A stretch of 64,000 nt of DNA from a virus (lineage: Duplodnaviria > Caudoviricetes): the IMG/VR virus record IMGVR_UViG_3300028920_000072, positions 1,123-65,122 of that record. One strand, 5' to 3'. The notes below the pieces were generated by a model. It saw only the letters and a program-made list of their open reading frames with translations. It ran no database searches and was not told the DNA's origin. Made by a program: the position numbers and the translations under genes. Positions 28,201 to 61,246 of the stretch are shown piece after piece. Positions within the stretch are counted from its first letter, which is position 1. Every line of letters begins with the position of its first letter.

Positions 28201-31004
28201 AAATACTGAGGAAGTATAGAGTAGATTTGACTAATAAAACGAGAAAATTTAGAAAAGAAGGCAATTCTAAGAAAGAAGCTAGAATAAAAGCACGTGAAGA
28301 ATTAGGCACAGAGGAAGAATATGTACAAGAACAATTAACTTTAAAAGGTACAGATATAGCTAAAAAAACTTATGAATTATTATACAAAGAATTAACATTA
28401 GCATCTAGAGATGTAAGTGAATTAACCAGATGGTTAGATAATATGTTAGATGCTAGTGATCCAGTGGTTTCTGCTGCAGTCAATGCGTTTATGGAAAAAG
28501 ATGATCTTCATGAAGTCGAAGCTTTAAACAAAAGAGCAGAGCTCATAGACGATTTAACAGAATTTGAAAAAACCAATCCAAAAGGCTTACTTACCTCAGA
28601 AGAAGAATTGTATTCATTTATATTAGAACGTGATGAAGATGGTGAATTAACTCAATATTTACTTAAACCTTGGACAAGTGCTTTTGAACAGATAGAAAAA
28701 AAGCATGCGGCAGAATTATTTAAAGATTATGATTCAGCACAAGCTAAGAAGAATTTAGCAGAATGGCGTAAAGAATTCATGCCTACTGATAAAGAAGCAT
28801 ATTATGATGGTTTAGAGGCACATTTAAATTTATTTGTTGTAGGTGAAGAGAAGCTTATACGAAACAATGAAGTAGATATTATTATAACAAATTTAGTACA
28901 AGAAGAATATCGAGATTTACATGAAATGGCCGAAGAAGGAGAAATAAGTGAATTTGCTGCAGATCAAGCATTAGAATGGATGAAACTTAATAGATGGAAA
29001 TATAGTCAATTTAAAGATTATACAGATCCTAAAACTAAAAAAGTCACTAAAGCAATTAATCCTAAATGGTCTGAGTTTGTTAAAGAATTAGGTATATCAA
29101 CAGAATTACCTATATATGAACAGATGGCAGAAGTTGAAAAATCAACCCATCCAAAAGCTAAATTATATAATGTTTTAATGAAATTAGCCAAAGAAGCTGA
29201 TAGTATGGTACCTTATAGTTATAGATTAGGGTATCGTTTGCCTGGAGTAGCCAAAACTTCTCATGAACGAGTTAGATCAGGTCAATCCCCTGCTACTTTT
29301 TTTAAAGAAGAATTTAAAAGTAGTTTGTTTTTACGTCCAGAAGATATAGAACGTGGGGAATCGATGCAATTCAAAGATGAATTAGGCAGAGCAAAATATT
29401 TTATTCCTATTCATTACACTGCTCAGATAGAACCAAAAAATCAATCGTATGATCTTCCTGGTATATTTTATAAGCGTTGGAGTTCTGCTAATGAATACAG
29501 CCACAAACGTCAGATATTATCTGAAATGGAAATGACTAAATTTTTTGTTGAAACAAGGGATGTGAAAAAAAGAAGCGTGTTAAATAAAATTATACCAAGG
29601 AAGATAAACAAAGGGGAAGATGATGACGATCAACCAGAAAGAATGAGTGGTAGTAATCTAGCTGCTATGTTTAGTGATTGGTTTGAGTTGGCAGTATATG
29701 GTCGTAAGACTAAAGATACTAACAAGGGAACACCTAGTGGATTAATAAAGATAAATGAAAATTGGGTATTAGATACCAGTAAAGCAGTAGATGCATTGAA
29801 TAGATATACCTCATTAAATTTACTCGGGGGCAATCTAGTGCAAGGTGTAGCTAATGTGCTAATAGGAGAAACAATGCAAGCGATAGATACTTTTGCTGGA
29901 GAACATGTTAATATGAAGAGTTTTACCAAAGCTAATCTTATATATCATTCGTGGTTGCCTAAAATGATGTTAGATTCTGGTCTGAAACAACCTCAACACA
30001 AAGGGTCTTTGATTATAGAACGATTCGGTATATTACACGGAGATCCTAGATATACTAATTTTGCTATGCGTACTCGTGTAGGTCAACAATTAAACTACGG
30101 TTCTTTGTATTTTATACAACAAGCGGGGGAACATTGGATGCAAGCTAGATTTTTATTTGCGTTGTTGTTAGACAAAAAGGCTTATGATAAGGAAGGCAAT
30201 GAAATAGGTAGTATGCTTGAACAGTATCAAGTTAAAAATGGTAAATTAATTATTAATCCAAAAGTTGATTTGATTAAATCAAAGTGGACAGCAAAAGATC
30301 AGGCAGCTTTTAAACAAAGAGCCAAGGGGTTACTTTCCAGAATGCACGGTGAATATAGTGAATTAGGTCGTGTAGCTATACAAAGATTAGCATTAGGTCG
30401 TATGGCGTATATGTTTCGTAAATTTGTAATACCTGGTATTAAACGTAGATATGGTAGGAGAAAATATATACAAAGATTAGATCAATTTGTAGAGGGTAAT
30501 TATATTACTACTGCTAAATTTGTGGCCAATTTATTTCAAGATTTAAAAATATTTAAACTTGCTTTAATGTCAGAAGAATGGGCTAAATTAAATGATCACG
30601 AAAGAGCTAATATATATCGTACAATAGCAGAAGTAGCATTTGTTATAGGTACTACTATATTAGCTAATGTATTCTTCAGGCTAAAAGAGGACGACGATGA
30701 CGATGATCGTTTCAATGCTTTTCTTGCATATCAGTTTTTTAGGTTACAAACTGAATTGTTGTTTTTCTCACCTAAATTAGACGAGGCGATAACTATATTA
30801 CGTTCTCCTATGGCGAGCATGTCAGTTGTAGAAAATATAATTAAAATGTTAGGTCAAATATTTCATCCGTTTGATGAATATGAACGTGGACCATGGAAAG
30901 GAGAATATAAGATTAAAAAGACTATGATTAATTTTGTTCCATTATATAAACAATATTATAAAGCACGAGATGTTGAAGAACAAATACCATGGTTTAAGAA
31001 CTAG
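25254..31004 (+). CDS. Large virion/ejection protein with zincin peptidase and PD-(D/E)xK nuclease domains
   Basis: LVHEAYH...VHEFIS; AGTIDLIIIDKTGRVHLFDFKT...YHMQLNFY; C-terminal LGRMAYMFRKF helical region as in crAss-like large virion proteins. Confidence 0.75.
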   Translation: MSNPFCINPNNEEYREMVSIFGEDLTYYLWNENGGQPLDHAPNGEYSNLFNDLFALSGNREDALELKAQIYTEDFKTMFDGERDENGEPVASSLFVTEEDEDEITKNRKHPKVKEALENPKYKPGEINDFNNPLSWDIEKEFDLLEKEKNDKGELVDKWTTLLGRRIKHYRKYRRDRAERIASEIRAKGHLADIRKTYRGNTVKYYVVPGVPIGIKGDRYKYMTVAGREIQTKEEDAPHIRRLLGFVNRPKTNVISLLKTFRSEYGEVLENNPLLKAKFDFIIRQEEKLKTLRVYNLPEHDSPNAYAVYDPTFHLIGFNVENLIEEPSLEAFAEILVHEAYHGMTAKAIDDPTSEAERKFKAEIEKIFETFLETNKDNTDYIEMYQSAWTKENKKTGEVVNDVHEFISAFNSNSDFAASLKPTIIKRIRHAVYNFFVDLLNAVGVDISKKGDFTYDKVDRVVNSFIENQTKFMPVSPTTYSKRDDNAKKYVAARDSIKEKIRHILEGRPKEIAKALRSIANDFIFDKKEHTYYHKPTGTWFTSTTEFLASVGIGGVRVFEIKEGKEYVIAKGEITYNKVLYKKGQTFVGIKNKSSFKGEGEVISVAVERGGNLGNAMHRSVESIVEDVAYDIEEETGFKVGEQAIKSLIKIIEDLKGESGIALSEVLVAHPEKSRAGTIDLIIIDKTGRVHLFDFKTKEKGFRWYNSTKYGVSDKKKYHMQLNFYKHMLDKMFPFKLVASMNVVMLQPDVVGDEIVDVELDNTIFDSGIDRFETMESDFAGTYGDKPVRYSASALIDRVKEDIRADSYMDLPEFLLLASEKSKLTEAETLLKETLNKFNKRLDIMQARYSFSKREGFEKFMDELVTSQNATSAFLQIVTYAYKQTNIVKKQYDDLIKKGERPTAETLYQWKDYLVVFEVLDDIKNLVMDDPSMFSDPKTMDMLNSAIDVKNFIKHKFLTIGKEIIAEWLAPYYNGIRAEIREKILRKYRVDLTNKTRKFRKEGNSKKEARIKAREELGTEEEYVQEQLTLKGTDIAKKTYELLYKELTLASRDVSELTRWLDNMLDASDPVVSAAVNAFMEKDDLHEVEALNKRAELIDDLTEFEKTNPKGLLTSEEELYSFILERDEDGELTQYLLKPWTSAFEQIEKKHAAELFKDYDSAQAKKNLAEWRKEFMPTDKEAYYDGLEAHLNLFVVGEEKLIRNNEVDIIITNLVQEEYRDLHEMAEEGEISEFAADQALEWMKLNRWKYSQFKDYTDPKTKKVTKAINPKWSEFVKELGISTELPIYEQMAEVEKSTHPKAKLYNVLMKLAKEADSMVPYSYRLGYRLPGVAKTSHERVRSGQSPATFFKEEFKSSLFLRPEDIERGESMQFKDELGRAKYFIPIHYTAQIEPKNQSYDLPGIFYKRWSSANEYSHKRQILSEMEMTKFFVETRDVKKRSVLNKIIPRKINKGEDDDDQPERMSGSNLAAMFSDWFELAVYGRKTKDTNKGTPSGLIKINENWVLDTSKAVDALNRYTSLNLLGGNLVQGVANVLIGETMQAIDTFAGEHVNMKSFTKANLIYHSWLPKMMLDSGLKQPQHKGSLIIERFGILHGDPRYTNFAMRTRVGQQLNYGSLYFIQQAGEHWMQARFLFALLLDKKAYDKEGNEIGSMLEQYQVKNGKLIINPKVDLIKSKWTAKDQAAFKQRAKGLLSRMHGEYSELGRVAIQRLALGRMAYMFRKFVIPGIKRRYGRRKYIQRLDQFVEGNYITTAKFVANLFQDLKIFKLALMSEEWAKLNDHERANIYRTIAEVAFVIGTTILANVFFRLKEDDDDDDRFNAFLAYQFFRLQTELLFFSPKLDEAITILRSPMASMSVVENIIKMLGQIFHPFDEYERGPWKGEYKIKKTMINFVPLYKQYYKARDVEEQIPWFKN

Positions 31005-45937: not shown

Positions 45938-47920
45938 CTAGACTATTTCGCAAGTATCATTATTACAAAATAGTTCTGGTTTAGATTCTTCACTTACACC
46001 ATTTAATTCAAATGGTTTTAATTTGCGAATCATTTTTTTGTATTCATCTTCAGATATTTCTTCATATGGCATTTGTGGATATGAAGTTTTCTCTAATTTT
46101 GGTAAAAAGCTAACTCCTTTCAATTTATATTGAAAATAATTAAGAGCAGATGCTATTTGATCTTTTTCTTCTTTTTTAAATGTTATTGTACACGATACTT
46201 GGTTATCTGCCCAGTACTCTTGTAAAAATGCGGCTAAAGATAATTGTTCCCACATACTTACTTCAGATAGTGTACGAGTTCCTGTAATTGCCACAGGAAT
46301 CTCAATAACAGAAGTATTTTCTGGATCATTTACATCTAATTCTACTTTATAGTTAGCTTTTTTAATATATTCAAGTAAATTAGAATTATTAGATATTCTA
46401 ATTCTTCTTTTATAATAGTTTCCCTCAGGAAAATGCATTCCTGGTGTTACTCCAGGTAATAAAGACACTGTACCTGAAGGTTTAATGCTGGTTGTTTTTA
46501 TACTTCTAGGTATAGCAAACCAGTCACTATATATTTTATCATAGTATTGTATTATATTGTATCCATCGTCCAACCATTCATATAATTGGTGAATACCATT
46601 ACTGTCAAGGAATTGAGCTATTCCACTAACAGAAGTTCCAATGCGTCTATTACGTAATTGTACTCTATTTGTTTCTGACCAATGAGTTGTACCTAAAGTT
46701 ACAGTTTTTGCATATAGGTATGCGAATTTTAATGTGCGTTTAAAGTCCTCTAAGGACTCATGCATTGTTGGAAATGTTTCTACCAAGCAACACATTTCAT
46801 ATGATTCTAAGGTTTGTTCCATGCATGGATTAGCTCCGACACTACGTAAGTCTCTTCTGTTACTATTATCTCCGAGTCTTCCGAAGTTACGCATGTTATC
46901 AAGCCAGGCAAATCCAGGTTCACCGTTCTTACCTGCTTGCTTTGCAACAGCTTTGTAATCTTGTCCCAGTTCACAAAATACTGAGTTATTACTTGCCCAT
47001 CCCCATTGAGCACGATGCACGTTTCTTCCAACATAGGTTTCAGTTTTATTATCCCAAATGTAGTCTTTAAGTTTAAGATAGTCTTCGTCATTTGGGTCAC
47101 CAAATACTATTTGAGCAGTTCTTCTAACATTACCTGCAACTACACAAACACCAATCATATTCATAATATCTACAATATCTTGAATAGTAATTTTTTCACC
47201 TATTCTTTTACTTAATAGATGTTTTATTTGTTCATGTAATTTACGTAATGGTTCGGCTCCTGCCGATTTACCACCAAAAGTTTTTATAGTTTCACCTTTT
47301 TTTCTTATTTTATTATATTTAAACACAGGGAGTGATTCTCCTTTAAAATAAGCATTTAAAACTAATTTGAGTGATTCTACCCAACCTTCTCTGGTATCAG
47401 GTATTGTAAATTCATATGAATCTTTAGATGGTTTTAAAATAGTTAATTTTTTAGCTCCTTTAACATCAAATCCTACGCCTACTCCAAGCATAGAAAAATC
47501 CATCATAAATTCAAATGGTTTACTTAAGTCTTTATCTAAATTTTCAGTAGATACAAAAGCACAATTATTTAAAGCAACAAATAAACCTCTATTTTCGATT
47601 ATATCTGTTCCCATGGCCCATAAACCACGACCTGGTGGTAAAAATTTCATATTAAACATTCGATCATACATTTCTTCTGCAGATCTATGTGCTTTTTCTT
47701 CATCCCAACCTAAGTTGTTTTCTGTAATATAACGCTTTTGAATAGAATATGTGCCTTCTACAACTCTTCGAATTGTTTCATACCATTTTTCATTTAAGCC
47801 ATTCTCTTTTATTCTAGAGTATGTTCTTAAATAAGTTATCTCTCCTAATCCATTAAATCCAAACTCTGGTTTAATACTTTTATATTTATTTATAAAACTA
47901 TCTTTTAATTCAAAATTCAT
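45938..47920 (-). CDS. nrdJ: Class II (adenosylcobalamin-dependent) ribonucleotide reductase, monomeric RTPR type
   Basis: LPPGRGLWAMG, LNNCAF, GVGVGFD, VVAGNVRR, GANPCMEQ.L..E.CCLVE, TSIKPSGTVS, C-terminal CNNDTC. Confidence 0.92.
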   Translation of the reverse strand: MNFELKDSFINKYKSIKPEFGFNGLGEITYLRTYSRIKENGLNEKWYETIRRVVEGTYSIQKRYITENNLGWDEEKAHRSAEEMYDRMFNMKFLPPGRGLWAMGTDIIENRGLFVALNNCAFVSTENLDKDLSKPFEFMMDFSMLGVGVGFDVKGAKKLTILKPSKDSYEFTIPDTREGWVESLKLVLNAYFKGESLPVFKYNKIRKKGETIKTFGGKSAGAEPLRKLHEQIKHLLSKRIGEKITIQDIVDIMNMIGVCVVAGNVRRTAQIVFGDPNDEDYLKLKDYIWDNKTETYVGRNVHRAQWGWASNNSVFCELGQDYKAVAKQAGKNGEPGFAWLDNMRNFGRLGDNSNRRDLRSVGANPCMEQTLESYEMCCLVETFPTMHESLEDFKRTLKFAYLYAKTVTLGTTHWSETNRVQLRNRRIGTSVSGIAQFLDSNGIHQLYEWLDDGYNIIQYYDKIYSDWFAIPRSIKTTSIKPSGTVSLLPGVTPGMHFPEGNYYKRRIRISNNSNLLEYIKKANYKVELDVNDPENTSVIEIPVAITGTRTLSEVSMWEQLSLAAFLQEYWADNQVSCTITFKKEEKDQIASALNYFQYKLKGVSFLPKLEKTSYPQMPYEEISEDEYKKMIRKLKPFELNGVSEESKPELFCNNDTCEIV

Positions 47921-47970: not shown

Positions 47971-48438
47971 TTATTTATCTTCTGTATATAATTTTTTTGA
48001 AGCAAGTTTTAAATCGTCATCGATTTCAACTTTAATTTTGGTATCTCTGTTGAAATTTGTTAGTTTAGTTTTAATTTTAGACTTTTCTTCTTCCAATGAT
48101 TTAATAATGTCATTAATTTCAGTATCTATAAAGTAAGCATTATCATTATTATCGATATTTAAATTTTGAAAAAATCTTATTCGATTATTGATATTAAATA
48201 ATTTATATATATAATAATTATTTGTATTTTTATCAGCATGTTTTTGTTTATTTGCATCCTGAATGGCTTCTTTAAGTACTATAAATTGATCTTCTAACAT
48301 TTCTAATCTTATTAAAATTGAATCTAGATCAATTCCTGCTTCATTATAATCTTGGATATATTGGAGAGCTTTTGCTATTTCTTCTTCTACTTCATCCCTC
48401 ATTTTTCTTACTATTGTGAGGGGCAGTTTTATTTTCAT
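47971..48438 (-). CDS. Hypothetical coiled-coil protein
   Basis: 155-aa helical ORF. Confidence 0.6.
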   Translation of the reverse strand: MKIKLPLTIVRKMRDEVEEEIAKALQYIQDYNEAGIDLDSILIRLEMLEDQFIVLKEAIQDANKQKHADKNTNNYYIYKLFNINNRIRFFQNLNIDNNDNAYFIDTEINDIIKSLEEEKSKIKTKLTNFNRDTKIKVEIDDDLKLASKKLYTEDK

Positions 48439-48511
48439 ATTCTATTTGATTTTTTGGAACTATTAGAAAACCTGTCAATTCTAACAGTAATTAATACATA
48501 CCAAGCATTTT

Positions 48512-49159
48512 CTAATATCTTTCCAAAGCAATCATAGTATATAAATATTTACCTATACTTCTTTCCTTTTTGTTTTTATAAGTAAATATCATGGGATCTA
48601 TTGTTTTCCCATTTTTAATTATTTCATAATGTAAATGCGATCCTGTTGTTAAACCTGTAATACCCACAGTACCTAATACTGTTTTTACATTGATAATATC
48701 ACCTTTATTTACATTGATTTTTTTCAAATGTGCATACCTTGTTCTATAACCATTTGCATGTTTAATTATTACTTGGTTTCCATAGCCATATTTGGAATAT
48801 TTAATAAGTTCTACAATTCCATTAGCTGTAGCTCGAACATTAGTATTTAATTCTGATTTAATATCTATACCAACATGTTTGTGCCAATGTTTATATATTG
48901 GATGTAATCTATAACCATAGTCACTACTTATTCCTTGTATTAAAGTTGGTTTAATTGGAGAGTATATTGGAATACTATCCAAGTAAAGATATATTGCAGT
49001 GCTTTCATCTTCTATTCTGCTTTTTATTTTTTCTACTTCTTCACTATATATAATGTAATCATTTTTACTTTTTTCATTGATGATTTCACCTCCACCAACG
49101 AAAGCAGTTGAAGCATTAAGAGCAAAAAGAAGAAAAAGCAATTTTAGCAATTTCTTCAT
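48512..49159 (-). CDS. M23 family peptidase with signal peptide
   Basis: ISSDYGYRLHPI..HVGIDI...GYGNQVIIKH...TRYAHL...TGSHLHYEI. Confidence 0.9.
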   Translation of the reverse strand: MKKLLKLLFLLFALNASTAFVGGGEIINEKSKNDYIIYSEEVEKIKSRIEDESTAIYLYLDSIPIYSPIKPTLIQGISSDYGYRLHPIYKHWHKHVGIDIKSELNTNVRATANGIVELIKYSKYGYGNQVIIKHANGYRTRYAHLKKINVNKGDIINVKTVLGTVGITGLTTGSHLHYEIIKNGKTIDPMIFTYKNKKERSIGKYLYTMIALERY

Positions 49160-49374: not shown

Positions 49375-49959
49375 TTACGCAATTTGCTTTATGGGAAAAA
49401 TGCGATTAATTCTTATTGGTAAATTAGTTAAATGACTTTTCATATCATCTAACCAAGTTGATGTGTTTTCTTTTTTCGTTTTCATTTTTTGTCTGAATAG
49501 AGTAGTTATTCCATATATTGATCTTTTTGATATAAACGATAATGTTATATTCGAATTATAGGAATATTCAAGAGAGCTTTGTTCAGAAATTGATATATCT
49601 TGTATATTGTTACAATATAAATTAAATTGTTCCCAAACATAATCAAGTATGTCCCAATGTCTACGCATGTTCATTAATTGAAACATTGCTGAAATTGTAT
49701 CATTAAACACGACTCGATAACCAATTCCTTTGCCTTTTTTTTCTGCTTCATCTGCTATTTTCTCAGGAATGGTTTTTATAATTAGATCCGTAATTAGTAT
49801 TTTTTCTTTTTTGAAAGAATACCAATGTTTTTTTAATGTTATTATACCTGAGTGAGCTACTCTTACATAGCTCACGTCAGGAAATAATGTTGTTAGCATT
49901 TTTTTTACTCTAACTCTTGTTGATTGAGTTATATTTATTATTCTATCAATTGTTTTCAT
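49375..49959 (-). CDS. Hypothetical protein
   Basis: 194-aa ORF. Confidence 0.55.
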   Translation of the reverse strand: MKTIDRIINITQSTRVRVKKMLTTLFPDVSYVRVAHSGIITLKKHWYSFKKEKILITDLIIKTIPEKIADEAEKKGKGIGYRVVFNDTISAMFQLMNMRRHWDILDYVWEQFNLYCNNIQDISISEQSSLEYSYNSNITLSFISKRSIYGITTLFRQKMKTKKENTSTWLDDMKSHLTNLPIRINRIFPIKQIA

Positions 49960-49964
49960 AAATA

Positions 49965-50639
49965 TTATCCTGATAACATCAATCTTATATGTTCTACAAT
50001 TGTGTTATAGTCATACATTGTCATGTCATCAATTTTAACTATATTAATATGATAGAGAAATTGTTTACCAATAAACAACATACTGCCTAATATAAAAGCA
50101 ACGATTCCCATTTTTCTTAATATATATTTCCAATCAAAATATCCATGTTTATAATCATTTCTATAAAATATGAAAATACTAAATAATAAGAAAAGAGATA
50201 CAATTGTAATTAACCAAATTGTATATATTGCATCTACTTTAGCTTTTAAATTTATTAAAGATAGTATGTCTTCTTCAGTATAATTTGTAGCTCTACCTAA
50301 ACGATCAATGATCGTTTCCCACCTCCCTTCTTGTTGAAATTGTAGATAGGTAAATAGATTGCTATTTAAATCATCTAGAGCTGAAACCAGTTTATTTGTT
50401 GCAATTGAATGCAATTCTGTTATTAATCCCATTTGACTAAGATATTCAGTGGTCCTTATATCGTCAATAATAATCTGAGCTGGTTCAAATTGTACATTAA
50501 CTTTTGATTCCTCTTCGTACATGTATGAAGTTGAATCTTCCTGTATTACATATGGAACATCATTGTCCTGATAATATGTAAATGAGGAAAATGTATTGAA
50601 TAGAAAAGGAAGCAAAATAAGTAATAAAAACTTTTTCAT
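49965..50639 (-). CDS. Membrane protein with signal peptide and two TM helices (likely start 50639)
   Basis: MKKFLLLILLPFLF signal-like start; hydrophobic IWLITIVSLFLLFSIFIF and MGIVAFILGSMLFIG. Confidence 0.6.
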   Translation of the reverse strand: MKKFLLLILLPFLFNTFSSFTYYQDNDVPYVIQEDSTSYMYEEESKVNVQFEPAQIIIDDIRTTEYLSQMGLITELHSIATNKLVSALDDLNSNLFTYLQFQQEGRWETIIDRLGRATNYTEEDILSLINLKAKVDAIYTIWLITIVSLFLLFSIFIFYRNDYKHGYFDWKYILRKMGIVAFILGSMLFIGKQFLYHINIVKIDDMTMYDYNTIVEHIRLMLSG

Positions 50640-50734
50640 AATTGTTTGATGTTTAGCTTTAATTATTGATATGTCATAGATAATAGTGGATGCTACTAAA
50701 AGTAGCACCCAAGCTATTATTAAATAAATTTTCC

Positions 50735-51193
50735 TTAAAACCGATTTTCCTTTAGTTGTGTAGTAAGAAAATCAATTTCTTTTTCAAGTTCTTCTGCTTG
50801 TTTTTCAGCAAGTTCAAGTTCATAAGCAACTAATTCTTTGGCAACTGCTTTTGCAACTTCAAGATCAGAAAAGAAAGCTTTTTCAATAGGTACTAAAGTA
50901 CCTCCTTGTTTTGGCATTTCAATGTCACCATTGATTATATAATTATCTGCGTTCTTTTTTCTACCATCAATGAGTTCAACGGTTCTTTCAACAATGCCTA
51001 CTGTTTTACGAACCGAATTATCATCAAGGTTTTTACCATCTGTTACAGGAGTTAATACTATTCCATAAATAACGTCATCTATACGTAAATCCTTAGGATT
51101 TGTTATAGGTTGACGAATAACAGTTGCTTCAAGTATTTTAGCGTTTTCTCTTGCGCCTTTTATGGCACTAATGATGTCATTTGTCTTATTCAT
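50735..51193 (-). CDS. Hypothetical protein with C-terminal coiled coil
   Basis: 152-aa ORF. Confidence 0.6.
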   Translation of the reverse strand: MNKTNDIISAIKGARENAKILEATVIRQPITNPKDLRIDDVIYGIVLTPVTDGKNLDDNSVRKTVGIVERTVELIDGRKKNADNYIINGDIEMPKQGGTLVPIEKAFFSDLEVAKAVAKELVAYELELAEKQAEELEKEIDFLTTQLKENRF

Positions 51194-51204
51194 TTTGTTT
51201 GATG

Positions 51205-51636
51205 TTAATAATTAGTGAATATTGTGAATTTTGATTTTTTACGGTTAAGAAATTTAATTAGAATATGATCCTTACTATTTCTTAATTCGTCTTTTATTAG
51301 GACTATTTTTTTGGATTCATCGTTAAAATAAATATTTTTAAAATCAACAATAGTCCAAAGGTTTGTATATTCATCCTTTTCTTTTCCCCAAAAATTCTTT
51401 GGGAGTCTATTTCTTTTTGTATCCCATGCTGATTTTAATGGTCTCCAAAAAGTTATATTTTCTTTTTTGAACATTAATGTTTTTGGAATATACAAAGATA
51501 ACGAAATATTATTAACTAATAAAGGAATTTTAATTTCATTAGTTAATCTTGTTTTCACTTGATACACTAATCTCAAACCACCTATCTGTTTATTTTCTTC
51601 TATTTTTAAAAGAGTAAATTTTATTTCTTTTTTCAT
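51205..51636 (-). CDS. Hypothetical protein
   Basis: 143-aa ORF. Confidence 0.55.
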   Translation of the reverse strand: MKKEIKFTLLKIEENKQIGGLRLVYQVKTRLTNEIKIPLLVNNISLSLYIPKTLMFKKENITFWRPLKSAWDTKRNRLPKNFWGKEKDEYTNLWTIVDFKNIYFNDESKKIVLIKDELRNSKDHILIKFLNRKKSKFTIFTNY

Positions 51637-51649
51637 TTTAATGATATTT

Positions 51650-53215
51650 GTGGTTTAGCAATTAATGTGTTGAAGCAATAACGATATTGCTATGAGTACA
51701 TGGCCAATACAATTGACAGTAAACCTCTAACTAGAATAACGGGAAAAATTCTAAGTATCTTTGTCTCTACTGTTTTTAGACATCACAACTACTTTTTTTC
51801 ACGAAAATAGATGATATATCTTTACTTATATTCCTATAATTACAATATATCCAATTAAGTTAGTCAAGGGATTACAATATCGCTACACTTCATAGAAATG
51901 TAATTCACTACCAGAGTGATTATGTGGAGTTCAATCCACTTGTACTATATATTTACTTATTTACGTTATATTGATAAAACTTAACATATTTCGCAATATG
52001 TTTTAGTGATAATCGTTATAAGTAATAATTGAAAGAGCTATTTACTCCTATTTTTCACGATAGGCTTTACTCCACCCAATATTTGATAAATTTGCTAGTT
52101 TATATAATATGGTTGGTAGGTTTCGAGACTAATGGAATCTCTAAGACCCATTTTCAATCTTCACTCATGTTTCAATTCTATTTATAACTGTGTTATCATA
52201 GCATACTCATAAAGCTTAATGCTACCTAAGCTTGCAATATACCCTATACACTATCATATTTGACCGTTACTGGATTATATAATAGTTATTAAGTAATTGA
52301 ATATATTACCCCGACTTGTTATTTTATTTATGAGTGACATCACGGTCACTTAGTTAAGAGATTTTAATTTTATTATTATCCAATTCCTATTTATTAATAT
52401 TCATATTTTATTGCGGTAGGATTCTAACCTACGAAGCCATATGTTTTGTTCACATTATATTATTGTAATTTTGGATAAATATTGATAATATAAATGTGAG
52501 AAAACTTTTTAGGCATTCTAATTACGATAGAATTCCTTTGCACTTCAAGAATTATGATGTTGGTGCATAATTCTTTCCTCTTGGATACGACTCAATCATA
52601 TTTCAATTAATAACCAACAAAAATAATAATAAATACCTACATTAACAGTTTCACTTATTTTGTATTATTATTTAATAATATCTGATACAGAGCAACCGCA
52701 AAATAAGCTGTTTCCTGCTTTTACCCCCATACTCTTATAAATGGTTGTAGCTGACATTTATGCTCCCGTATGTCCTACGTTACTGCCTTCTTTTCAACCT
52801 CACATTGTCTGTCAATTTTGATGCCTTTCAAAAGAGTGTAGCAGAATGCAACCTTAGGAGTAATTATTTTTTCAGGGAATTCCACCCTGTCCGTTGCAAT
52901 ACATAAAAGATCATTGTCTAGCCCTTCGGTTCAACACGATGTACCCAGTGTGTCTGTAGTAAATACGCTAGCATGCTTTAACTATATTTCTACGTTATGA
53001 CATCTGACTGCAATTTATGCCCTCCTGACCTCATTGATCCTATTCAACATCTTTCCAACCCACTGTTGGCGATTATTTCATATTCAGCGTGTAGCTTAGA
53101 CTGAGGAAATATAACTTATGGTGTTTTCTATTTGGAAGTAATTGATTGTACAAATAGTTCATATCACGTCCCTTAATTTAAAAATTAAAGGAGTGCACCA
53201 TCACAGGTGCACCCT
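51650..53215 (-). ncRNA. Candidate large structured non-coding RNA(s)
   Basis: No ORF of 60 aa or more in ~1.58 kb; more than 12 hairpins, GNRA and T-loop motifs on the - strand, long-range complementarity. Confidence 0.6.
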
Positions 53216-53218
53216 AAG

Positions 53219-54907
53219 TTATTGATATAATCTTAATCTTCTTGTTAATGGTTGATATGGTAAACCATCGATAGTTTTAGTAAAAGGTCTACCTAAAATT
53301 GCCACTTCTATTATAGAATCTGATGTATATTCTGATAATTCTTTCATCAATTCTGTAATTTGAATTTTCAAAAGTGTTTGTAATTTAAATAAACCTATAT
53401 TTAGACTTGATATAAATTTAACATTTGGTTCTATTACAAATGAAAAAACTTGTCTATAATTAAAAGATTTAGTATTGCGTTCTTCCAAATATATTTGACA
53501 TTCAGATACATATGGAAAACTTTTAACAAATCTTTCTATTACATCTAATTGTATAGGTATCTTAAATATAGATTTTACTCTATTGATGTTTCTACCATAT
53601 ACAAATAATAAATTATCTGTTATTTTAATAAAATCCTTTGATAGAAACATAGTATCTAAACCATCTCCATTGTGTAATTCTACAAGTCTATCAATATAGT
53701 TAATATATATATTTGGTAGAATTTCTCCTGCACACATAAATTGGTTTAATGCTTTATTAGAAAAATCATTGAATGCTATTAATTGCATTGCTTCTTGAGT
53801 ACCATATGTTGTAATTAATGGAAGAACATCCTTAGCAAGATAGAGAGCTTTCATATGTATTTGTGAATTATATACTATTATTGCTTCTTTCTTTGTTTGT
53901 TTGTTGTAGTATCTTTTAAGATTTCTTGATGCTAATTTCTTAAATAACCACTGAAGTTCCTTATGTTTAAAAATATTATGTTTAAATCTTCCTTCCATTA
54001 TAGAATCAACTTTTTCTTTCCATACGTTTTCAAAAGAAACAGTATCTTCTATTACAACTTCTGCCTTTTTCATATTATCAACAAAAATACAATTTTTCAT
54101 AAAAGGTATTAATACTGTTAATATGTGACTATATTCATATGGTATTGCTGAAAACACTGTAGTTTGAGCTTCCATGTGATCTTTCCAAAATCTACTTTGC
54201 ATAATTCTTTTCAAATGATGTGCTAATTCTCTTTCATCGACTATTACAAGTTTTTCTTGAAAATTGTGTGTGCCTTTAGTATAATAACCTAACATTCCTA
54301 ATTTTTGATTATTACAGAATTTGTCAAACATTTCATCTACCTCTTGTATAGTTAAAGGTGGATTATTCATATCTCTTACAGCATAATATTCTAATAAAGC
54401 TTTTGGTTCATCAAAATATATAGGTTTTAAAGTCAAGAGATTAAATATTCCTTTTATTAAATGTCTAGTAAATATTGAAGAATAATTTAGTCTTATGTCA
54501 TTCAAGCCTAATTTATTTTCCATATATCCATCTGTAAATATATATCTCATATTATTATTGATAATAATATTTTTCAGTTTTATTTTATCAATGTTGCTAG
54601 GAATGATTATTAACTTATTTCCTGTAAGCAATGAAGCAAAATATAATAATATCCAATTCATATTTATTACAGAATCTGAAAATTTAGTTATTACACCAAG
54701 AGAATAATATTCTTTATTATCAAATATTAAGGTATTCTCAACTGATGTTCTGAATAATATAGTTAATAATCTCATATAATATACTAATACACTGAAAAAG
54801 TCTGACATTTTGTGATTTGAAGTCACATTTGTGTAGAAATGCTTTTTTATATGATCAAAGATCATATTTTTTAAAGGACTTATTCGTTTATCTAATATAT
54901 TTTTCAT
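53219..54907 (-). CDS. Divergent AMP-binding (ANL) long-chain acyl-CoA synthetase homolog, probably catalytically altered
   Basis: Collinear degenerate ANL motifs: NWILLYFASLLTG, YYTKGTHNFQEKLV (A3), YGTQE (A5), CAGEILP, SKD..LFVYGR..IQLDVIERFVKSFPYVSEC (A7/A8), PFTKT. Confidence 0.65.
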   Translation of the reverse strand: MKNILDKRISPLKNMIFDHIKKHFYTNVTSNHKMSDFFSVLVYYMRLLTILFRTSVENTLIFDNKEYYSLGVITKFSDSVINMNWILLYFASLLTGNKLIIIPSNIDKIKLKNIIINNNMRYIFTDGYMENKLGLNDIRLNYSSIFTRHLIKGIFNLLTLKPIYFDEPKALLEYYAVRDMNNPPLTIQEVDEMFDKFCNNQKLGMLGYYTKGTHNFQEKLVIVDERELAHHLKRIMQSRFWKDHMEAQTTVFSAIPYEYSHILTVLIPFMKNCIFVDNMKKAEVVIEDTVSFENVWKEKVDSIMEGRFKHNIFKHKELQWLFKKLASRNLKRYYNKQTKKEAIIVYNSQIHMKALYLAKDVLPLITTYGTQEAMQLIAFNDFSNKALNQFMCAGEILPNIYINYIDRLVELHNGDGLDTMFLSKDFIKITDNLLFVYGRNINRVKSIFKIPIQLDVIERFVKSFPYVSECQIYLEERNTKSFNYRQVFSFVIEPNVKFISSLNIGLFKLQTLLKIQITELMKELSEYTSDSIIEVAILGRPFTKTIDGLPYQPLTRRLRLYQ

Positions 54908-55295
54908 AATTTTCCTTTAGATATTTAGCATTATTTAATGCTTGATATATATTAATAGTATCCCAAGCTTTATTTATAATAATTACAAATTCTCTTGGTT
55001 TATGATCTTTTAATTCAAAAGCATAATTCTTAAGAATTAACTTATAATCAGGAATTACACTTGCTGGATGTAAATTGTCATCTGATTCAATATGAGGAAT
55101 AACGATAGTAAAATTGGAATATCTTTCGTTTTCTATTATCCTTGTTAGGTTCAATGCCATGTTTTTTAGTAATTGTTGTTTAGAAAACATGCCCGTTTCT
55201 TCTTCAATATCTAATATTTTATCATAAAAGATACTGTTTAAAATTCTTTTACTACTCCTACTTAATTTAGGAGAATCGATTTCTAATATTGTCAT
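54888..55295 (-). CDS. Hypothetical protein
   Basis: 135-aa ORF overlapping the start of the ANL gene. Confidence 0.55.
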   Translation of the reverse strand: MTILEIDSPKLSRSSKRILNSIFYDKILDIEEETGMFSKQQLLKNMALNLTRIIENERYSNFTIVIPHIESDDNLHPASVIPDYKLILKNYAFELKDHKPREFVIIINKAWDTINIYQALNNAKYLKENYEKYIR

Positions 55296-55297
55296 AA

Positions 55298-55582
55298 CTA
55301 TTTATTTTGATTTGGTAATTCAATTTCATCTAAAAATACTATTACACATCGTTGATTATTATATGTCATAGCATAATTAATAGTATTTTTTTCTTCATCT
55401 TCAGTAAGACTACATAATACTATTCTCTCATAATATTTATTTGTCTTTTTACCACCTAGTTTAACTAAATAATCTGGTAGTTCTCCTGAAAATGGTTTTG
55501 ATAATATTTTTCTTTTTACATTAAATGAAGAAGTATCAAGTATTATCATTCCTTTTCTTAATTTGCCTTTTATATTTGTCAT
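55298..55582 (-). CDS. Hypothetical protein
   Basis: 94-aa ORF. Confidence 0.5.
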   Translation of the reverse strand: MTNIKGKLRKGMIILDTSSFNVKRKILSKPFSGELPDYLVKLGGKKTNKYYERIVLCSLTEDEEKNTINYAMTYNNQRCVIVFLDEIELPNQNK

Positions 55583-56072
55583 ATTTTCTTAATTTTGATA
55601 TTGCATATTTTAATTTATCACTATCATACCCTGATATAGGTTTTATACTAGATAAAGCAATTGATATATTATTATCTATAGTATGTATTTCTCCCATTTC
55701 TATTTTAAATGGTCCATCGTATCCTGTACCTAAAAATAATATTTTATCACCTAGTAGTAAATATCCTTTTTGCATTTCATCATTGGTAAACCAAAATCCT
55801 TCTTCTTCTTTTATGTTTATACCATGATGTTGCAAAATAGGTTTTAATGATCTAGCTATTGATAATTTATGATCTTCGATTAAGACATCAATGCTTTGTA
55901 ACAAATCTTTTAGTGAATCTGAATCTGGAAACACTTTGTTTACTCCATTTAACAAGAGTTGAGCCTCTCTAAGTGAAAGCTTTGCTGCTTTCAAATAAAT
56001 TATTTCTCTAGATCTTTTTACGCAATTTTCTACGAGGGAGGACTCTAGGATTTGCTTTTTTATGTTTGACAT
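55536..56072 (-). CDS. Hypothetical protein
   Basis: 178-aa ORF. Confidence 0.55.
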   Translation of the reverse strand: MSNIKKQILESSLVENCVKRSREIIYLKAAKLSLREAQLLLNGVNKVFPDSDSLKDLLQSIDVLIEDHKLSIARSLKPILQHHGINIKEEEGFWFTNDEMQKGYLLLGDKILFLGTGYDGPFKIEMGEIHTIDNNISIALSSIKPISGYDSDKLKYAISKLRKYDKYKRQIKKRNDNT

Positions 56073-56163
56073 GTTGTTCTGTTTTTGATTTTCGTTTGGT
56101 GTTTTTCATTGGTGTTTTTAATGGCCAATCTTTTTCTATTTGTTTACTTGTTATTTTAGGCAT
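56008..56163 (-). CDS. Small basic protein (51 aa, not in the ORF track)
   Basis: Manually translated MPKITSKQIEKDWPLKTPMKNTKRKSKTEQHVKHKKANPRVLPRRKLRKKI*; AT-rich sequence before the ATG. Confidence 0.35.
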   Translation of the reverse strand: MPKITSKQIEKDWPLKTPMKNTKRKSKTEQHVKHKKANPRVLPRRKLRKKI

Positions 56164-56302
56164 GATATTTAAATAAAAATGCCTTGATGCCTACCTGTTA
56201 AGATATTAATACAGATTTATTATTATATATTCCAAGGATAAAGAATATAAAAACAAATTTGTAATACATAAACATCAAGGCTTAAAATGTTATTTATTAA
56301 TG

Positions 56303-59300
56303 TTATTTATTACCGTCTATAAACTTAGCTTGTTTATCTACTGCTTTATAAAGATCGTAAACATTATTTTTTGAAATTTGTCTTGCATATTTGCCGACAG
56401 CATGTTTTCTTATAGCATCAACAATAGCGGTTCTTACACTTTTGTTTGTGCCATATTTTTTCAAAATTTCAAGAACTGCATCTTTATATTGTGTTTTATT
56501 AACAGCATTAATAGCTTTAGTTACATCATAATCTAATGGGACATTCTTTGATTTGTCTTCTTTCTTCCCAGATTCTAAAGGAACAGTCTTCACAGTCTCT
56601 TGATCTTCTCCCGTTTTTGTATCTGAAACTGTATTGACGTCCTCTGGGACAAATTCTTCCCCCGATTCATTCTTCGATGAAAAGGTTTTATTAAACCAAT
56701 GTGTTACTTGATCAACATTCCAACCTTCAGCATCTTCGATTTGCTTGTTTTCTACTATTAATTTTATACACATTTCTATAGCAGTTTTAATGTCTAAAGC
56801 TTCTTCTCTTTCTATTGTGAAATTATATACTTGGTCAAGTTTATTAAACTTTTTTACTTTTTCCCAAATATCAGGATATTCTTTTTCAAATTCTGTTAAA
56901 TTTGAATAAATTATTTCTTGATCATCTTCCACAATTTCTGCTTCTGGTATATCATCAATTGGTTCATCAACTGATTCAATTTCATTAACTGTTTCTTTAA
57001 TAGCTTTTTCATTTTCTTCTATAGCACGTGGTCTAACTTTGTTTATAATTTCTCCAAAATTATCTCTAATTTCACTTAAATTCATAGTTATACCATTTTT
57101 TGAAAGATATTCTCTAACGTTTTTTATGATAGATACAAATCCACTGCCTGTTTTAGCAATTTCTTTTATCTTATCTTTATCAATTGGTTTAACATTAGGA
57201 ATAATTGTTTCAGAAGCTATTTCTTCGCTAAAGAACCTACCATAAATTTGATTGATAAATAATTTGATTTTTTCTTCATTTTTGAATAAACTTTTATCAG
57301 ATTTTTCTTTATCAAACTTTTCATTTTCAAGTATTTGTTCTTTAGCCCAGTCGACTAACATTTCCTCACTATAACCATAGTTATCAACTAAGTTTTTAGC
57401 TTTAGGAAATATTTCTGAAGCACGAGTGAGAGTCAAATCATCCTTAGATGGTTTTTTATTTAGATCATCTAAAATAGATTGAACATGTTTACTTAAATTT
57501 TTAAGATGTTTAAATTGAGCTATTTTGTAAGTAAGTTTTATATTATCGGTATTAGATCTTATTAATCCATTGTTGTCAAATATTCTTTCAACAATTTCTG
57601 AATCAATTATATCTTCAACTGATTTTGATTTATTTTCTAAAATAAAGTCATAAAACTCTTTTTTAGTTACAGCTTTTTCAATACCATCTGGTCTCATATT
57701 TTTAATGATTTCATCATATACTTCAGTAGTATATTCCTTTAGTTTATTGAGATCTCTAAAGTCTATGACTTTACCATCTTTTTGTTTATAAAGACCATCT
57801 TGTACAAGTTTCATAAATGTAGAATCAAGAATGAGATTTAAAGGAATGTGGTTTCTTATTGATTCAAGAATAGAATCTCGAAATTCACTTTCTTCTGTTA
57901 TTTTAAATTCATTCATTAACTGATTCATAGTTCTGCGTATAAAATCTATAACATGTATAGGAGTATACATATTATATCTTATATTTTCAGCATTTAAAAT
58001 ATAGGTATTGGACAATTTAGGTTCATATTCATCTATTGTTTGTTTAATAGATGTTTCAGGATCTCCATTATTATTTTTAAGACCCTGTACTAGTTCGTGA
58101 CCAAGTTTGGCACGTAGATTTTCAAAAGAATCTTCATATTGTACTAATTCTTTACGACCGCCTGATATTATAGATGGGATACCAAGTGTTTCAAAATGAT
58201 CAAGATCTGAAATTTCTTTTTCGACAATTGTTTGCTTCCATTTGTCTATTTGATTTGTACTATATCCTCTAAATCTGAAGAAAATCTCTATTAAATCATC
58301 AGCTTTTTGTTTAAGTTCTTCTTCTTCTTTAGATTTTTCATATAATTCAATATATGTACCAGATATTCGATCAAAAGCTTCTAATTCTTCTCTTAATCTT
58401 AATTTTGGTGTACCAAATTCAATTATAGCATCAAGTTTGTTTAAATCACTAGTACTATGACGTATAACATTATTAGTATCGATGTTTAACAATAAATCAA
58501 ATGCTTTTTTATCATCTTCTGTAAAAATAACTTTACTTGAATCTCTAAAATCATAAATGCGTAAAGTTTCTCTAATTTTTAAATGATTCTTGTATGATTG
58601 TAAATCTACTATTTTTTCTGCTTTATAAGCATTAGCAATTTGATCAATTTTGTTTACACCAATATTAGCATCATCGAGTATATCAAGAGCTTTTCTCTTG
58701 AGTACTTCATTGTGCTGTTTGGTTTTTTGTTCTTTTTGAGAAACTTCAGTAGGTTTGACTTCTTCAGATATTTTCTCATAAAGATCTTTTAACCAGCTTT
58801 GAATTTCCTTATCAGTCCACTTATGTGGTTTTTTTGTTTTGTCTTTAGGAATATATTTAGCTTCAGCTAAATGTTTAGTTGCTAAATCAATAGCAACTTC
58901 TTTCCTATTCTTTTTGATTAAATTAATGCAAGCCCGTGTTAAATCTTTGAACTCAGGAATTTCAATTATTTTTTCACCATTAAGTAAACTAACAGTTTTT
59001 GAGTCTTTAGTTTTTTCAAATGGCATTGATTGATCTGTTCCTATTGCATCGATTCTAGATGCCATAGCTTCTGAATTAATACTCATAACATCAGCGTTAA
59101 CATCAGTTAGGCGTAATAATATAGCTTCAAGTCGTGATATTTCTATATCACAAACTGCTTTAGCATCATCACATACATGCATTTTCCTTTTTTGCCAATA
59201 TTCAATAACTTCGATTACTTCGTTTGGCTTAAATAACAATTCATTAATTGTAGAGACATTAAAGTTTTCTTTAATGCCATCGAACAACCAACGATTGTCA

Positions 59301-59338
59301 AGTTCATAGAGATTATGAGCTGTATTTTTATTGTTCAT
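56303..59338 (-). CDS. Large alpha-helical hypothetical protein (1011 aa)
   Basis: Long uninterrupted ORF; no recognisable catalytic motif. Confidence 0.7.
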   Translation of the reverse strand: MNNKNTAHNLYELDNRWLFDGIKENFNVSTINELLFKPNEVIEVIEYWQKRKMHVCDDAKAVCDIEISRLEAILLRLTDVNADVMSINSEAMASRIDAIGTDQSMPFEKTKDSKTVSLLNGEKIIEIPEFKDLTRACINLIKKNRKEVAIDLATKHLAEAKYIPKDKTKKPHKWTDKEIQSWLKDLYEKISEEVKPTEVSQKEQKTKQHNEVLKRKALDILDDANIGVNKIDQIANAYKAEKIVDLQSYKNHLKIRETLRIYDFRDSSKVIFTEDDKKAFDLLLNIDTNNVIRHSTSDLNKLDAIIEFGTPKLRLREELEAFDRISGTYIELYEKSKEEEELKQKADDLIEIFFRFRGYSTNQIDKWKQTIVEKEISDLDHFETLGIPSIISGGRKELVQYEDSFENLRAKLGHELVQGLKNNNGDPETSIKQTIDEYEPKLSNTYILNAENIRYNMYTPIHVIDFIRRTMNQLMNEFKITEESEFRDSILESIRNHIPLNLILDSTFMKLVQDGLYKQKDGKVIDFRDLNKLKEYTTEVYDEIIKNMRPDGIEKAVTKKEFYDFILENKSKSVEDIIDSEIVERIFDNNGLIRSNTDNIKLTYKIAQFKHLKNLSKHVQSILDDLNKKPSKDDLTLTRASEIFPKAKNLVDNYGYSEEMLVDWAKEQILENEKFDKEKSDKSLFKNEEKIKLFINQIYGRFFSEEIASETIIPNVKPIDKDKIKEIAKTGSGFVSIIKNVREYLSKNGITMNLSEIRDNFGEIINKVRPRAIEENEKAIKETVNEIESVDEPIDDIPEAEIVEDDQEIIYSNLTEFEKEYPDIWEKVKKFNKLDQVYNFTIEREEALDIKTAIEMCIKLIVENKQIEDAEGWNVDQVTHWFNKTFSSKNESGEEFVPEDVNTVSDTKTGEDQETVKTVPLESGKKEDKSKNVPLDYDVTKAINAVNKTQYKDAVLEILKKYGTNKSVRTAIVDAIRKHAVGKYARQISKNNVYDLYKAVDKQAKFIDGNK

Positions 59339-60180: not shown

Positions 60181-60280
60181 TTTTTCTTTTTTTTATATGG
60201 GTATGTGAAAAATGTTAACAATGCTGGACCCAATTTAGTAACCAAAATTAATACTATTATGGATGCTATTATTATTTCCA

Positions 60281-60478
60281 TTATATTCTTTTGAATGTAT
60301 GATGTTCTAATTCAGTTACTGTTCCACAACAACTACATGCTGCTAAACGAGTATCTGGATTATTTTTATTTGGCATTAGTTCTGATTGTACTGTTGCGTT
60401 TTTATTAGAACAATGAGTACAAGCCCATCTGTAAACTATTGCATTTACAGTGTAAGCTTTAGCTTTATGAGTATTCAT
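60281..60478 (-). CDS. Small zinc-ribbon protein
   Basis: CTHC...CSCC. Confidence 0.55.
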   Translation of the reverse strand: MNTHKAKAYTVNAIVYRWACTHCSNKNATVQSELMPNKNNPDTRLAACSCCGTVTELEHHTFKRI

Positions 60479-60666
60479 TTTAGTTGATTTTTATGTTTAA
60501 TCTTACGAGTATAAATCTTTTTACTAGTATGAATTTTAGTTATCCTTGTAAATCCATTATCTAAGGTAGCTTCACGACTACCTCGTCTATTTGCTTTAAT
60601 GTAATCGTTTAACATTTCCGTTTTCGATATTTTGCTAATATTTTTGCGGTTTCTTTTACTGCACAC
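60475..60666 (-). CDS. Small basic hypothetical protein
   Basis: YIKANRRGSREA...KIHTSKKIYTRKIKHK. Confidence 0.55.
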   Translation of the reverse strand: MCSKRNRKNISKISKTEMLNDYIKANRRGSREATLDNGFTRITKIHTSKKIYTRKIKHKNQLK

Positions 60667-60838
60667 GGGTCTATTGATTTAAGTTTTCTTAAATTATAAA
60701 GCCAATATAAATATTTTATTATTTTAAACATCTTTGTAATTTTATTATAATGGGGAAAAGTTGTTTTAGATGTTTCCTCCCCCAGCTCACCCTGACTCAT
60801 CTTTCGTTTCGCAACTATTTGATGGACTTTCCTTTTTT

Positions 60839-61027
60839 TTAAAAAATTTGTTTTTCATTTGCTTTATCATGTTCTCTTAAATCATATACTATACCATTTT
60901 CTTTACATAACTTTTTACAATCAACATTAAATGCTACTGATAAAAGAATAATATGTCTTTCATTTAATAAGTTAAAAGCATGAAGATTATCCATATAGTC
61001 AATTAACTTTTTGTCTATTTCATTCAT
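60839..61027 (-). CDS. Hypothetical protein
   Basis: 62-aa ORF in a tightly packed run of small genes. Confidence 0.45.
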   Translation of the reverse strand: MNEIDKKLIDYMDNLHAFNLLNERHIILLSVAFNVDCKKLCKENGIVYDLREHDKANEKQIF

Positions 61028-61030
61028 TAT

Positions 61031-61237
61031 TTATTGGTTAGGTTTATAAAATTCCACTTCTGTGTATGCTGCAATATATATTCTATCTCCATCCGCATTA
61101 TATCCATTGCAATATATCCCGTCAAGTCTACATATAGTAATAATATCACCCTTATTAACAGGTATTGCACCAGGTGGTATCTTTGCATCTTCAAGCAGCT
61201 TTACTTTTATGCCGTATTCTATATCGTATGCTTTCAT
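61031..61237 (-). CDS. Small beta-rich (SH3-like) hypothetical protein
   Basis: VNKGDIITICRLDGIYCNGYNADGDRIYI pattern. Confidence 0.5.
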   Translation of the reverse strand: MKAYDIEYGIKVKLLEDAKIPPGAIPVNKGDIITICRLDGIYCNGYNADGDRIYIAAYTEVEFYKPNQ

Positions 61238-61246
61238 CTCTATTGT

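Follow-up and report, generated by a model that had tools for sequence, protein, structure and literature searches.

The window analysed here covers 64,000 bases of a viral contig that is 65,122 bases long (CheckV completeness estimate 55%), and its most unusual part lies on the minus strand at positions 51637-53218, between the stop codon of a gene for a divergent protein of the ANL superfamily and the start codon of the next gene, termed F2. We consider it likely that this stretch is the gene for, or a transcribed segment that forms, a very large structured RNA, which would represent an uncatalogued family carried by one environmental lineage of crAss-like phages. The element measures approximately 1.5 kb in the window and 1.6-2.0 kb in its relatives, and what is conserved among them is a pattern of base-paired helices that includes a long-range pseudoknot and T-loop-like hairpins. 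Beyond the ribosome, bacteria and phages have few noncoding RNAs that are large and intricately folded, and structural biology has gained new ground from each class known to date; at 1.5-2 kb, the element would rank among the largest non-ribosomal structured RNAs of these organisms.

Relatives were sought in two ways: (i) through the neighbouring ANL protein; and (ii) through DNA patterns, in scans that made no use of the protein. The protein-based scan, which used an alignment of close ANL homologs, gave five loci from viral contigs (26 pattern candidates) and four from metagenome contigs (90 candidates), one of the latter duplicating a viral contig and two being nearly identical to each other. 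All of these loci have an ORF-poor gap (ORF, open reading frame) of 1.6-2.0 kb, with a GC content of 0.35-0.43 in the gap and 0.31-0.36 in the locus. Exact DNA patterns were scanned against viral contigs three times, giving 73, 24 and 42 loci; from these, an nhmmer profile recovered only contigs already known and a single new one, L017, where an ANL gene again lies upstream. Altogether there are nine distinct loci, namely the window and eight other phage or metagenome loci, and the ORF-poor stretches of the relatives can be aligned over their whole length. When the window is included in the nhmmer profile the match has an E value of 1e-230; a leave-one-out profile matches the window at 52798-52034 (E 2.4e-51) and 53117-52852 (E 2.8e-14), with no other match in the 64 kb.

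Other collections gave no further members. Scans of viral contigs with one protein at a time, either the ANL protein of the window or the 1011-amino-acid protein of the same gene block, found no relatives; the most distant ANL subgroup likewise found nothing in viral contigs, and another subgroup found only a contig that was already known. In 185,579 species genomes, the ANL family was represented by none of the 45 candidates from a protein scan, and the RNA profile by none of the 120 matches listed by a DNA-pattern scan. Among 50,697 GenBank phage records, neither the RNA of the window (blastn) nor the block of ANL gene and RNA (tblastn with two ANL proteins) was found. One GenBank record, matched by the ANL protein of locus L006 at 19.7% identity, was rejected as a family member; it is regarded as a generic ANL case because its GC content is 50%, a further ORF comes immediately after the ANL gene and it contains no RNA match.

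The evidence for structure comes from a MAFFT alignment of the nine sequences (A6), from which a consensus structure was derived with RNAalifold, the controls being 500 column shuffles and pairing partners slid along the alignment. The structure contains 212 predicted pairs in 41 helices. Standard pairing amounts to 84.9%, compared with 72.5 +/- 0.6% in the shuffles, and 130 pairs have two-sided changes, compared with 71.5 +/- 5.5; neither value is reached by any of the 500 shuffles. Sliding the partners by 1-3 columns lowers the pairing to 38-41% and the number of two-sided pairs to 37-60. Particular helices illustrate the agreement: A6 1283-1286/1294-1297 is 100% paired with compensatory changes in all four pairs, A6 1139-1144/1199-1204 is 98% paired, and the T-loop-like hairpin at A6 1382-1386/1394-1398 is 96% paired, while a long-range helix (A6 1129-1137/1613-1621) has nine pairs, four of them with two-sided changes. 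Sub-alignments from which the window was left out give the same helices, with compensatory changes in 25 of 35 and 13 of 18 pairs. Cells with G-U pairs number 199 on the gene strand, compared with 74 when the structure is mirrored, and this excess points to the minus strand.

Near its 5′ end the element has a core in which two helices cross to form a pseudoknot, spanning approximately 170 nucleotides (nt) in the window. There, 53026-53020 pairs with 52862-52856 and crosses the pairing of 52897-52893 with 52852-52848; the corresponding helices in A6 are 313-319/612-618 and 481-488/622-628, with 95-98% pairing. The 18 pairs of the pseudoknot are 96.8% standard, compared with 84.7% in the shuffles (reached in 0 of 500) and 30-49% with slid partners, and each of the long helices has two-sided changes in five of seven pairs. 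The second pseudoknot helix encloses a hairpin at 52888-52874 (GGGUGGAAUUCCC, loop UGGAAUU). A second module, further 3′, consists of a hairpin at 52531-52517 (loop AUCGUAAUU region), a helix joining 52514-52512 to 52438-52436, and a T-loop-like hairpin at 52432-52416 (GUAGG-UUAGAAU-CCUAC). A covariance model of this module (R1), with 65 positions, was built from the eight relatives with the window left out; with default filters, it matches the window once, on the minus strand (69.3 bits, E 3.1e-18), every one of its 12 pairs being standard. We take the T-loop-like loops UUNRAAU and UGGAAUU to be typical modules for tertiary contacts.

The element varies in size at fixed points. Lineage-specific inserts of 70-250 nt, which resemble expansion segments, occur at A6 columns 1303-1375 and 1400-1600; in the window, L002 and L004 they lie between the strands of a GCC/GGC helix, and in L002, L003, L006 and L080 they follow the T-loop-like hairpin (insert-bearing elements at L002:6008-7951, L004:7402-9056 and L080:1913-3960). 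The copy in the window is the most reduced of the nine, and the ANL protein encoded beside it is in turn the most degenerate. This copy of the RNA does not have a subdomain of approximately 150 nt (A6 ~629-780, where helix 17 lies together with the 5′ strand of helix 15) that all eight other copies carry, and its GC content is the lowest, at 0.31 compared with 0.35-0.40. A long branch or relaxed constraint may be behind both the reduction of the RNA and the degeneration of the protein.

Several observations weigh against a large structured RNA. Folding of the single sequence 52640-53225 is not better than that of shuffles (z -1.39), and in the GC-rich block the z values of 150-nt sliding windows range from +0.4 to -1.0. 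The evidence for structure derives wholly from the comparison with relatives. The preliminary description of the window had spoken of a structured block after the ANL gene; covariation among the relatives upholds that block, and single-sequence folding does not. The comparison itself involves only nine distinct sequences from one collinear lineage, and the agreement is inflated because one alignment served both to derive the structure and to count its pairs. The total RNAalifold energy is similar for the opposite strand and the gene strand (-186 and -196). The 3′ boundary is soft, since the F2 ORFs of some relatives may begin further downstream than listed, and the leave-one-out nhmmer profile stops short of the last ~400 nt of the window's copy. 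Finally, the sequencing runs listed as carrying the stretch are all of DNA, with none of RNA.

Could the stretch be something other than RNA? A DNA-level element such as an origin or packaging site might be envisaged, as might a gene that has decayed or that is read in another genetic code, given that large noncoding DNA elements exist in phages and that single-sequence folding is unremarkable. The compensatory changes and the strand asymmetry of G-U pairs speak against all of these, and so do several direct tests. The sense strand under translation table 11 has no ORF longer than 36 amino acids from a start codon or 51 from stop to stop, and no ORF of at least 60 amino acids appears when TAG is read as glutamine or under table 4. 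Autocorrelation of conservation has peaks at lags 3, 6 and 9 in the coding alignments of the ANL gene and of F4, a membrane-protein gene downstream; the RNA alignment has no such periodicity at these lags. The region contains only short, chance-level repeats, and the cumulative GC skew has no inflection across it. The RNA is conserved among loci that share only 21-36% identity in their proteins, and decay is therefore disfavoured. Its nucleotide conservation equals that of the flanking coding genes (mean pairwise identity 0.545 for the RNA, 0.523 for the ANL coding sequence, 0.486 for F4 and 0.542 for F3). An explanation at the level of DNA or of a lost or recoded gene is thus highly improbable. 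GC content is 0.38-0.41 at ~52650-53100, compared with 0.21-0.28 in the flanking genes. The window has a second long stretch without an ORF of at least 80 amino acids (60181-61246, minus strand), which is filled by small ORFs of 55-68 amino acids, several of them basic.

A different question is whether the conserved sequence is one autonomous RNA. Instead, several smaller RNAs might be clustered here, or the sequence could be a long structured leader or 3′ untranslated region that regulates the flanking operon, be it F2-F5 or the ANL gene. Conserved sequence does approach the F2 gene: columns identical in at least eight of the nine sequences span 53126 to 51721, and helix 39, the 3′-most of those modelled and one without two-sided changes, extends to 51672, its 3′ strand (GCTTC, 51676-51672) lying ~35 nt upstream of the F2 start codon. 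There is no clear sense-strand terminator at the 3′ end of the RNA in the window and three relatives, the variable inserts of 70-250 nt divide the element into blocks, and the leave-one-out profile matches the window in two separate pieces. Set against this, long-range helices join distant blocks, as in the helix A6 1129-1137/1613-1621 and in the pseudoknot, and a length of 1.5-2 kb with at least 40 helices is, to our knowledge, far beyond that of bacterial or phage leaders. We therefore regard a leader or a cluster as unlikely, and a single large RNA as the better description.

On this reading, the element would be transcribed with the minus-strand genes on the replication side of the genome, would fold into a large multi-domain tertiary architecture, and would act during infection as RNA and not as a DNA site. 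It might serve as a scaffold or ribonucleoprotein (RNP) core together with products of the same gene block, or form an RNA-only assembly as other large phage RNAs may do. The crAss-like phages that carry it are widely important in ecology, and it offers a concrete handle on a block of approximately 13 genes that is otherwise dark. Long, ORF-free, GC-enriched gaps in AT-rich phage genomes appear worth screening for further RNA classes.

The element corresponds to no catalogued RNA family. Rfam 15, which covers GOLLD, ROOL, OLE, HEARO, group I and II introns, tRNA, tmRNA, RNase P and the rRNAs, gives no match at the gathering score in the 64-kb window. At E values up to 10, the region 51400-53400 has two chance-level matches (21 and 12.9 bits, with cut-offs of 52.7 and 87), and at E values up to 1, the loci of five relatives have nothing inside their gaps. 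No paper describing the element was found in the literature at the level of listings and abstracts, with subscription journals outside this coverage. Given the lack of both an Rfam match and a published description at that level, the element is treated as a new family of large structured phage or bacterial noncoding RNA, one that stands out by its size.

Two comparisons are instructive. GOLLD and ROOL are, according to one report, large ornate noncoding RNAs (PMC12286853). The new element resembles them in being a large, multi-domain, phage-carried noncoding RNA with covariation support and no known function, and in having, in three relatives of the window, a tRNA gene ~2 kb downstream of the RNA. 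GOLLD and ROOL are often borne by phages or prophages and associated with tRNAs. The new RNA is approximately two to three times longer than either, and differs further in having no Rfam match and in being seen only in crAss-like phages of environmental metagenomes. The tRNA genes follow the genes F2-F5 (L002:10208-10278, L003:11615-11686 and L006:11370-11439) and have no counterpart in the window, where ARAGORN finds no tRNA or tmRNA gene in the 64 kb; a very lax ARAGORN run gave only calls of intron-bearing tRNAs, all of which were rejected as implausible. The second comparison is with OLE, a large structured RNA of Firmicute chromosomes whose protein partners (Oap) are encoded nearby, one of them being a membrane protein. 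A membrane protein (F4) and basic proteins (F2 and F5) are conserved beside the new RNA as well; unlike OLE, the new RNA is without an Rfam match and is phage-borne.

The coordinates of the features discussed are collected in Table 1.

Table 1. Features of the RNA locus, in window coordinates (aa, amino acids)
Feature	Position	Strand	Remarks
Large conserved structured RNA element (probable)	51637..53218	(-)	1582 nt, from ANL stop to next start codon; homology, covariation
5′ domain core with pseudoknot	52848..53026	(-)	two crossing helices, covariation-supported
Module with T-loop-like hairpin	52411..52544	(-)	covariance model R1; helices 28-30 96-100% paired
Terminator-like hairpin, tail CTTTAATTTT	53191..53214	(-)	9 pairs, 6 of them G-C; consensus match only
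ANL-superfamily protein (family F1), 562 aa, divergent, motif-degenerate	53219..54907	(-)	fold match, family profile, motifs
F6, 135 aa	54888..55295	(-)	overlaps ANL start by 20 nt in window
F12 (94 aa), F8 (178 aa), F7 (1011 aa)	55298..59338	(-)	conserved upstream, no known family
F2, 143 aa, basic, isoelectric point 10.0	51205..51636	(-)	first gene after RNA in 9/9 loci
F3 (152 aa, acidic), F4 (247 aa, 5 transmembrane-like segments), F5 (194 aa, basic)	49375..51193	(-)	conserved downstream

The protein encoded immediately upstream of the RNA is predicted to have a two-domain ANL fold. The ANL superfamily (PF00501, AMP-binding) includes acyl-CoA synthetases, the adenylation domains of nonribosomal peptide synthetases and luciferases. 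By itself, the protein of the window matches no Pfam family at E values up to 0.01, PF00501 included, and no PHROG, and a word-based protein search returned only the protein itself. Its ESM Atlas model, which is for the exact sequence, aligns with three AMP-binding clusters at TM scores of 0.74-0.75 over 482-494 residues (best 0.75 over 488), and its feature score is 0.98 against a viral cluster with PF00501 in 96% of the members. A full HMMER scan gives 38 homologs at E values up to 0.001, the best with 38% identity and an E value of 7e-79. After the remainder, mostly fragments and weak matches, had been left out, 26 of the 38 were aligned, and 21 of these match PF00501 (best E 1.4e-32). The profile of the family matches 132 ANL chains of the PDB at E values up to 0.001, among them fatty acyl-CoA synthetases, luciferases and, as the best match, MenE (E 3.7e-23).

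The adenylation motifs (A3, A5, A8 and A10) were scored among the nine RNA-linked homologs. An A5-like TTYGxQE is invariant in all nine, the glutamine standing throughout the phage family where a threonine is usual in A5 of the ANL superfamily, and the GR of A8 is present. The A10 lysine is found in eight, the protein of the window alone having leucine (DGL), and the TSG core of the P-loop (A3, TSGT..G.PK-like) is found in five, with YTKGTHNFQEK in the window. The window protein is the most degenerate member of its family; the preliminary description had called it ANL-like and degenerate, and this is upheld. Retention of the motifs in most members suggests that the family as a whole consists of working adenylate-forming enzymes with their own chemistry, rather than a mere RNA-binding shell.

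This bears on a proposal made in the preliminary description, in which the ANL protein is joined with the large RNA and the products of neighbouring genes, here small basic and membrane proteins, in a single RNP module. The enzyme-like protein would then bind the RNA or act on it chemically. The linkage on which the proposal turned has been found: an ANL homolog is directly followed by the homologous RNA in all nine distinct loci, a count that covers the loci with visible surroundings and has some 29 other HMMER representatives outside it. In addition, the three DNA-pattern scans, although independent of the protein, gave the RNA only on contigs with an ANL gene upstream, and the collections scanned contain no ANL family member without the RNA. 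As had also been pointed out, genes for basic and membrane proteins follow the RNA, namely F2, with F4 two genes later, and these are conserved, as is the basic F5. The whole block of approximately 13 families is collinear in every locus, however, and therefore the adjacency of ANL gene and RNA does not discriminate and is no sign of partnership; the RNA is equally linked to every other gene of the block. The invariant A5 motif, the A10 lysine in eight of nine and the P-loop core in five of nine fit an ordinary adenylate-forming enzyme, and we know of no ANL enzyme that has an RNA as partner or substrate. A partnership of ANL protein and RNA is thus possible but not indicated, and the RNP module is quite unlikely.

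The junction between gene and RNA is ambiguous in the same respect. A hairpin does begin close behind the ANL gene, 4 nt after the stop codon (53214-53191), as the preliminary description had noted; its further statement that no U-tract follows, which had made co-transcription plausible, is mistaken, because the T-rich tail CTTTAATTTT makes the hairpin terminator-like. Such a site between the ANL gene and the RNA argues against a common module in the window. The region 51000-55600 has three terminator-like sites, compared with 0.9 +/- 0.8 in shuffles, and the one after the ANL gene lies in the sole 150-nt window whose folding stands out (z -3.6). The relatives point the other way: in all three that were scanned (L003, L006 and L005), the sense strand has no terminator-like site after the ANL stop.

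A more specific form of the proposal is that the RNA and the ANL enzyme are a functional pair. The enzyme might acylate or adenylate the RNA at one particular site, or load or modify it in some other way; alternatively, the RNA might scaffold the enzyme together with the basic and membrane proteins. In the two T-loop-like hairpins and the pseudoknot there is a hint of tertiary folding by which a further RNA, for instance a tRNA, might be docked. We hold a functional pair to be improbable; if real, it would add a novel type of RNA-protein machine and put the ANL fold to a novel use.

The gene order common to all nine loci is F10-F11-F7(~1000 aa)-F8-F12-F6-ANL-RNA-F2-F3-F4-F5-(F13/F14)-F9, and the ANL gene is the only member of the block with a recognisable family. 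A search of Pfam with 32 neighbour proteins from four relatives gave no match at or above the curated cut-offs, with KH_SLS1_2 and MobC_2 below threshold, and the ESM Atlas gave nothing for the 1011-amino-acid F7 protein. Upstream of the ANL gene, the overlap with the F6 ORF reported in the preliminary description is confirmed, and in four relatives the F6 stop overlaps the ANL start by 4 nt. The AlphaFold2 model of F6 (pLDDT 82.5) has two long helices and a five-stranded sheet; no fold can be assigned to it, with Foldseek reaching an E value of 0.35 and VIA a Z of 4.4 at best. The corresponding model of F2 (pLDDT 61) has no Foldseek match at E values up to 0.001, the best being 0.5. Across the F4 family, the number of transmembrane-like segments is 3-5. 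Beyond the block, the window has genes for an M23 peptidase (215 amino acids, E 5e-29; 47971-49159) and a ribonucleotide reductase of the B12-dependent type (45938-47920), both on the minus strand; F13, which is of the M23 family, is present in only three of the nine loci.

The phage of the window, which has an overall GC content of 0.30, is assigned to the crAss-like phages (Crassvirales) by similarity of hallmark proteins. The top tblastn matches listed come from crAss-like phages in the case of its DNA polymerase (30-32% identity); for a virion protein of 1485 amino acids they come from crAss-like phages together with Cellulophaga phage phi14:2 (27-31% identity). The likeness to Crassvirales thus consists of these matches and of the giant ORFs in the window; the difference is that the phage is only distantly related to the crAss-like phages matched. 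Two DNA sequencing runs, labelled as marine sediment metagenome, carry the same phage at near identity, and therefore no diverged sequence was gained from them; the contig may have come from one of the two. In one of the runs (X2), a plus-strand A>G change at window position 52901 is the sole reported difference within the GC-rich RNA domain; on the RNA strand it is a U>C change, inside the weakly supported helix 53019-53014/52905-52900. The two giant ORFs, of 4483 and 1916 amino acids, lie on the plus strand at 11810-31004 and overlap each other by 8 nt. They are presumably giant virion or transcription proteins of the crAss type, though far longer than usual, and their PHROG matches are confined to an RNase H-like region (residues 4276-4441) and an exonuclease-like one (residues 517-749).

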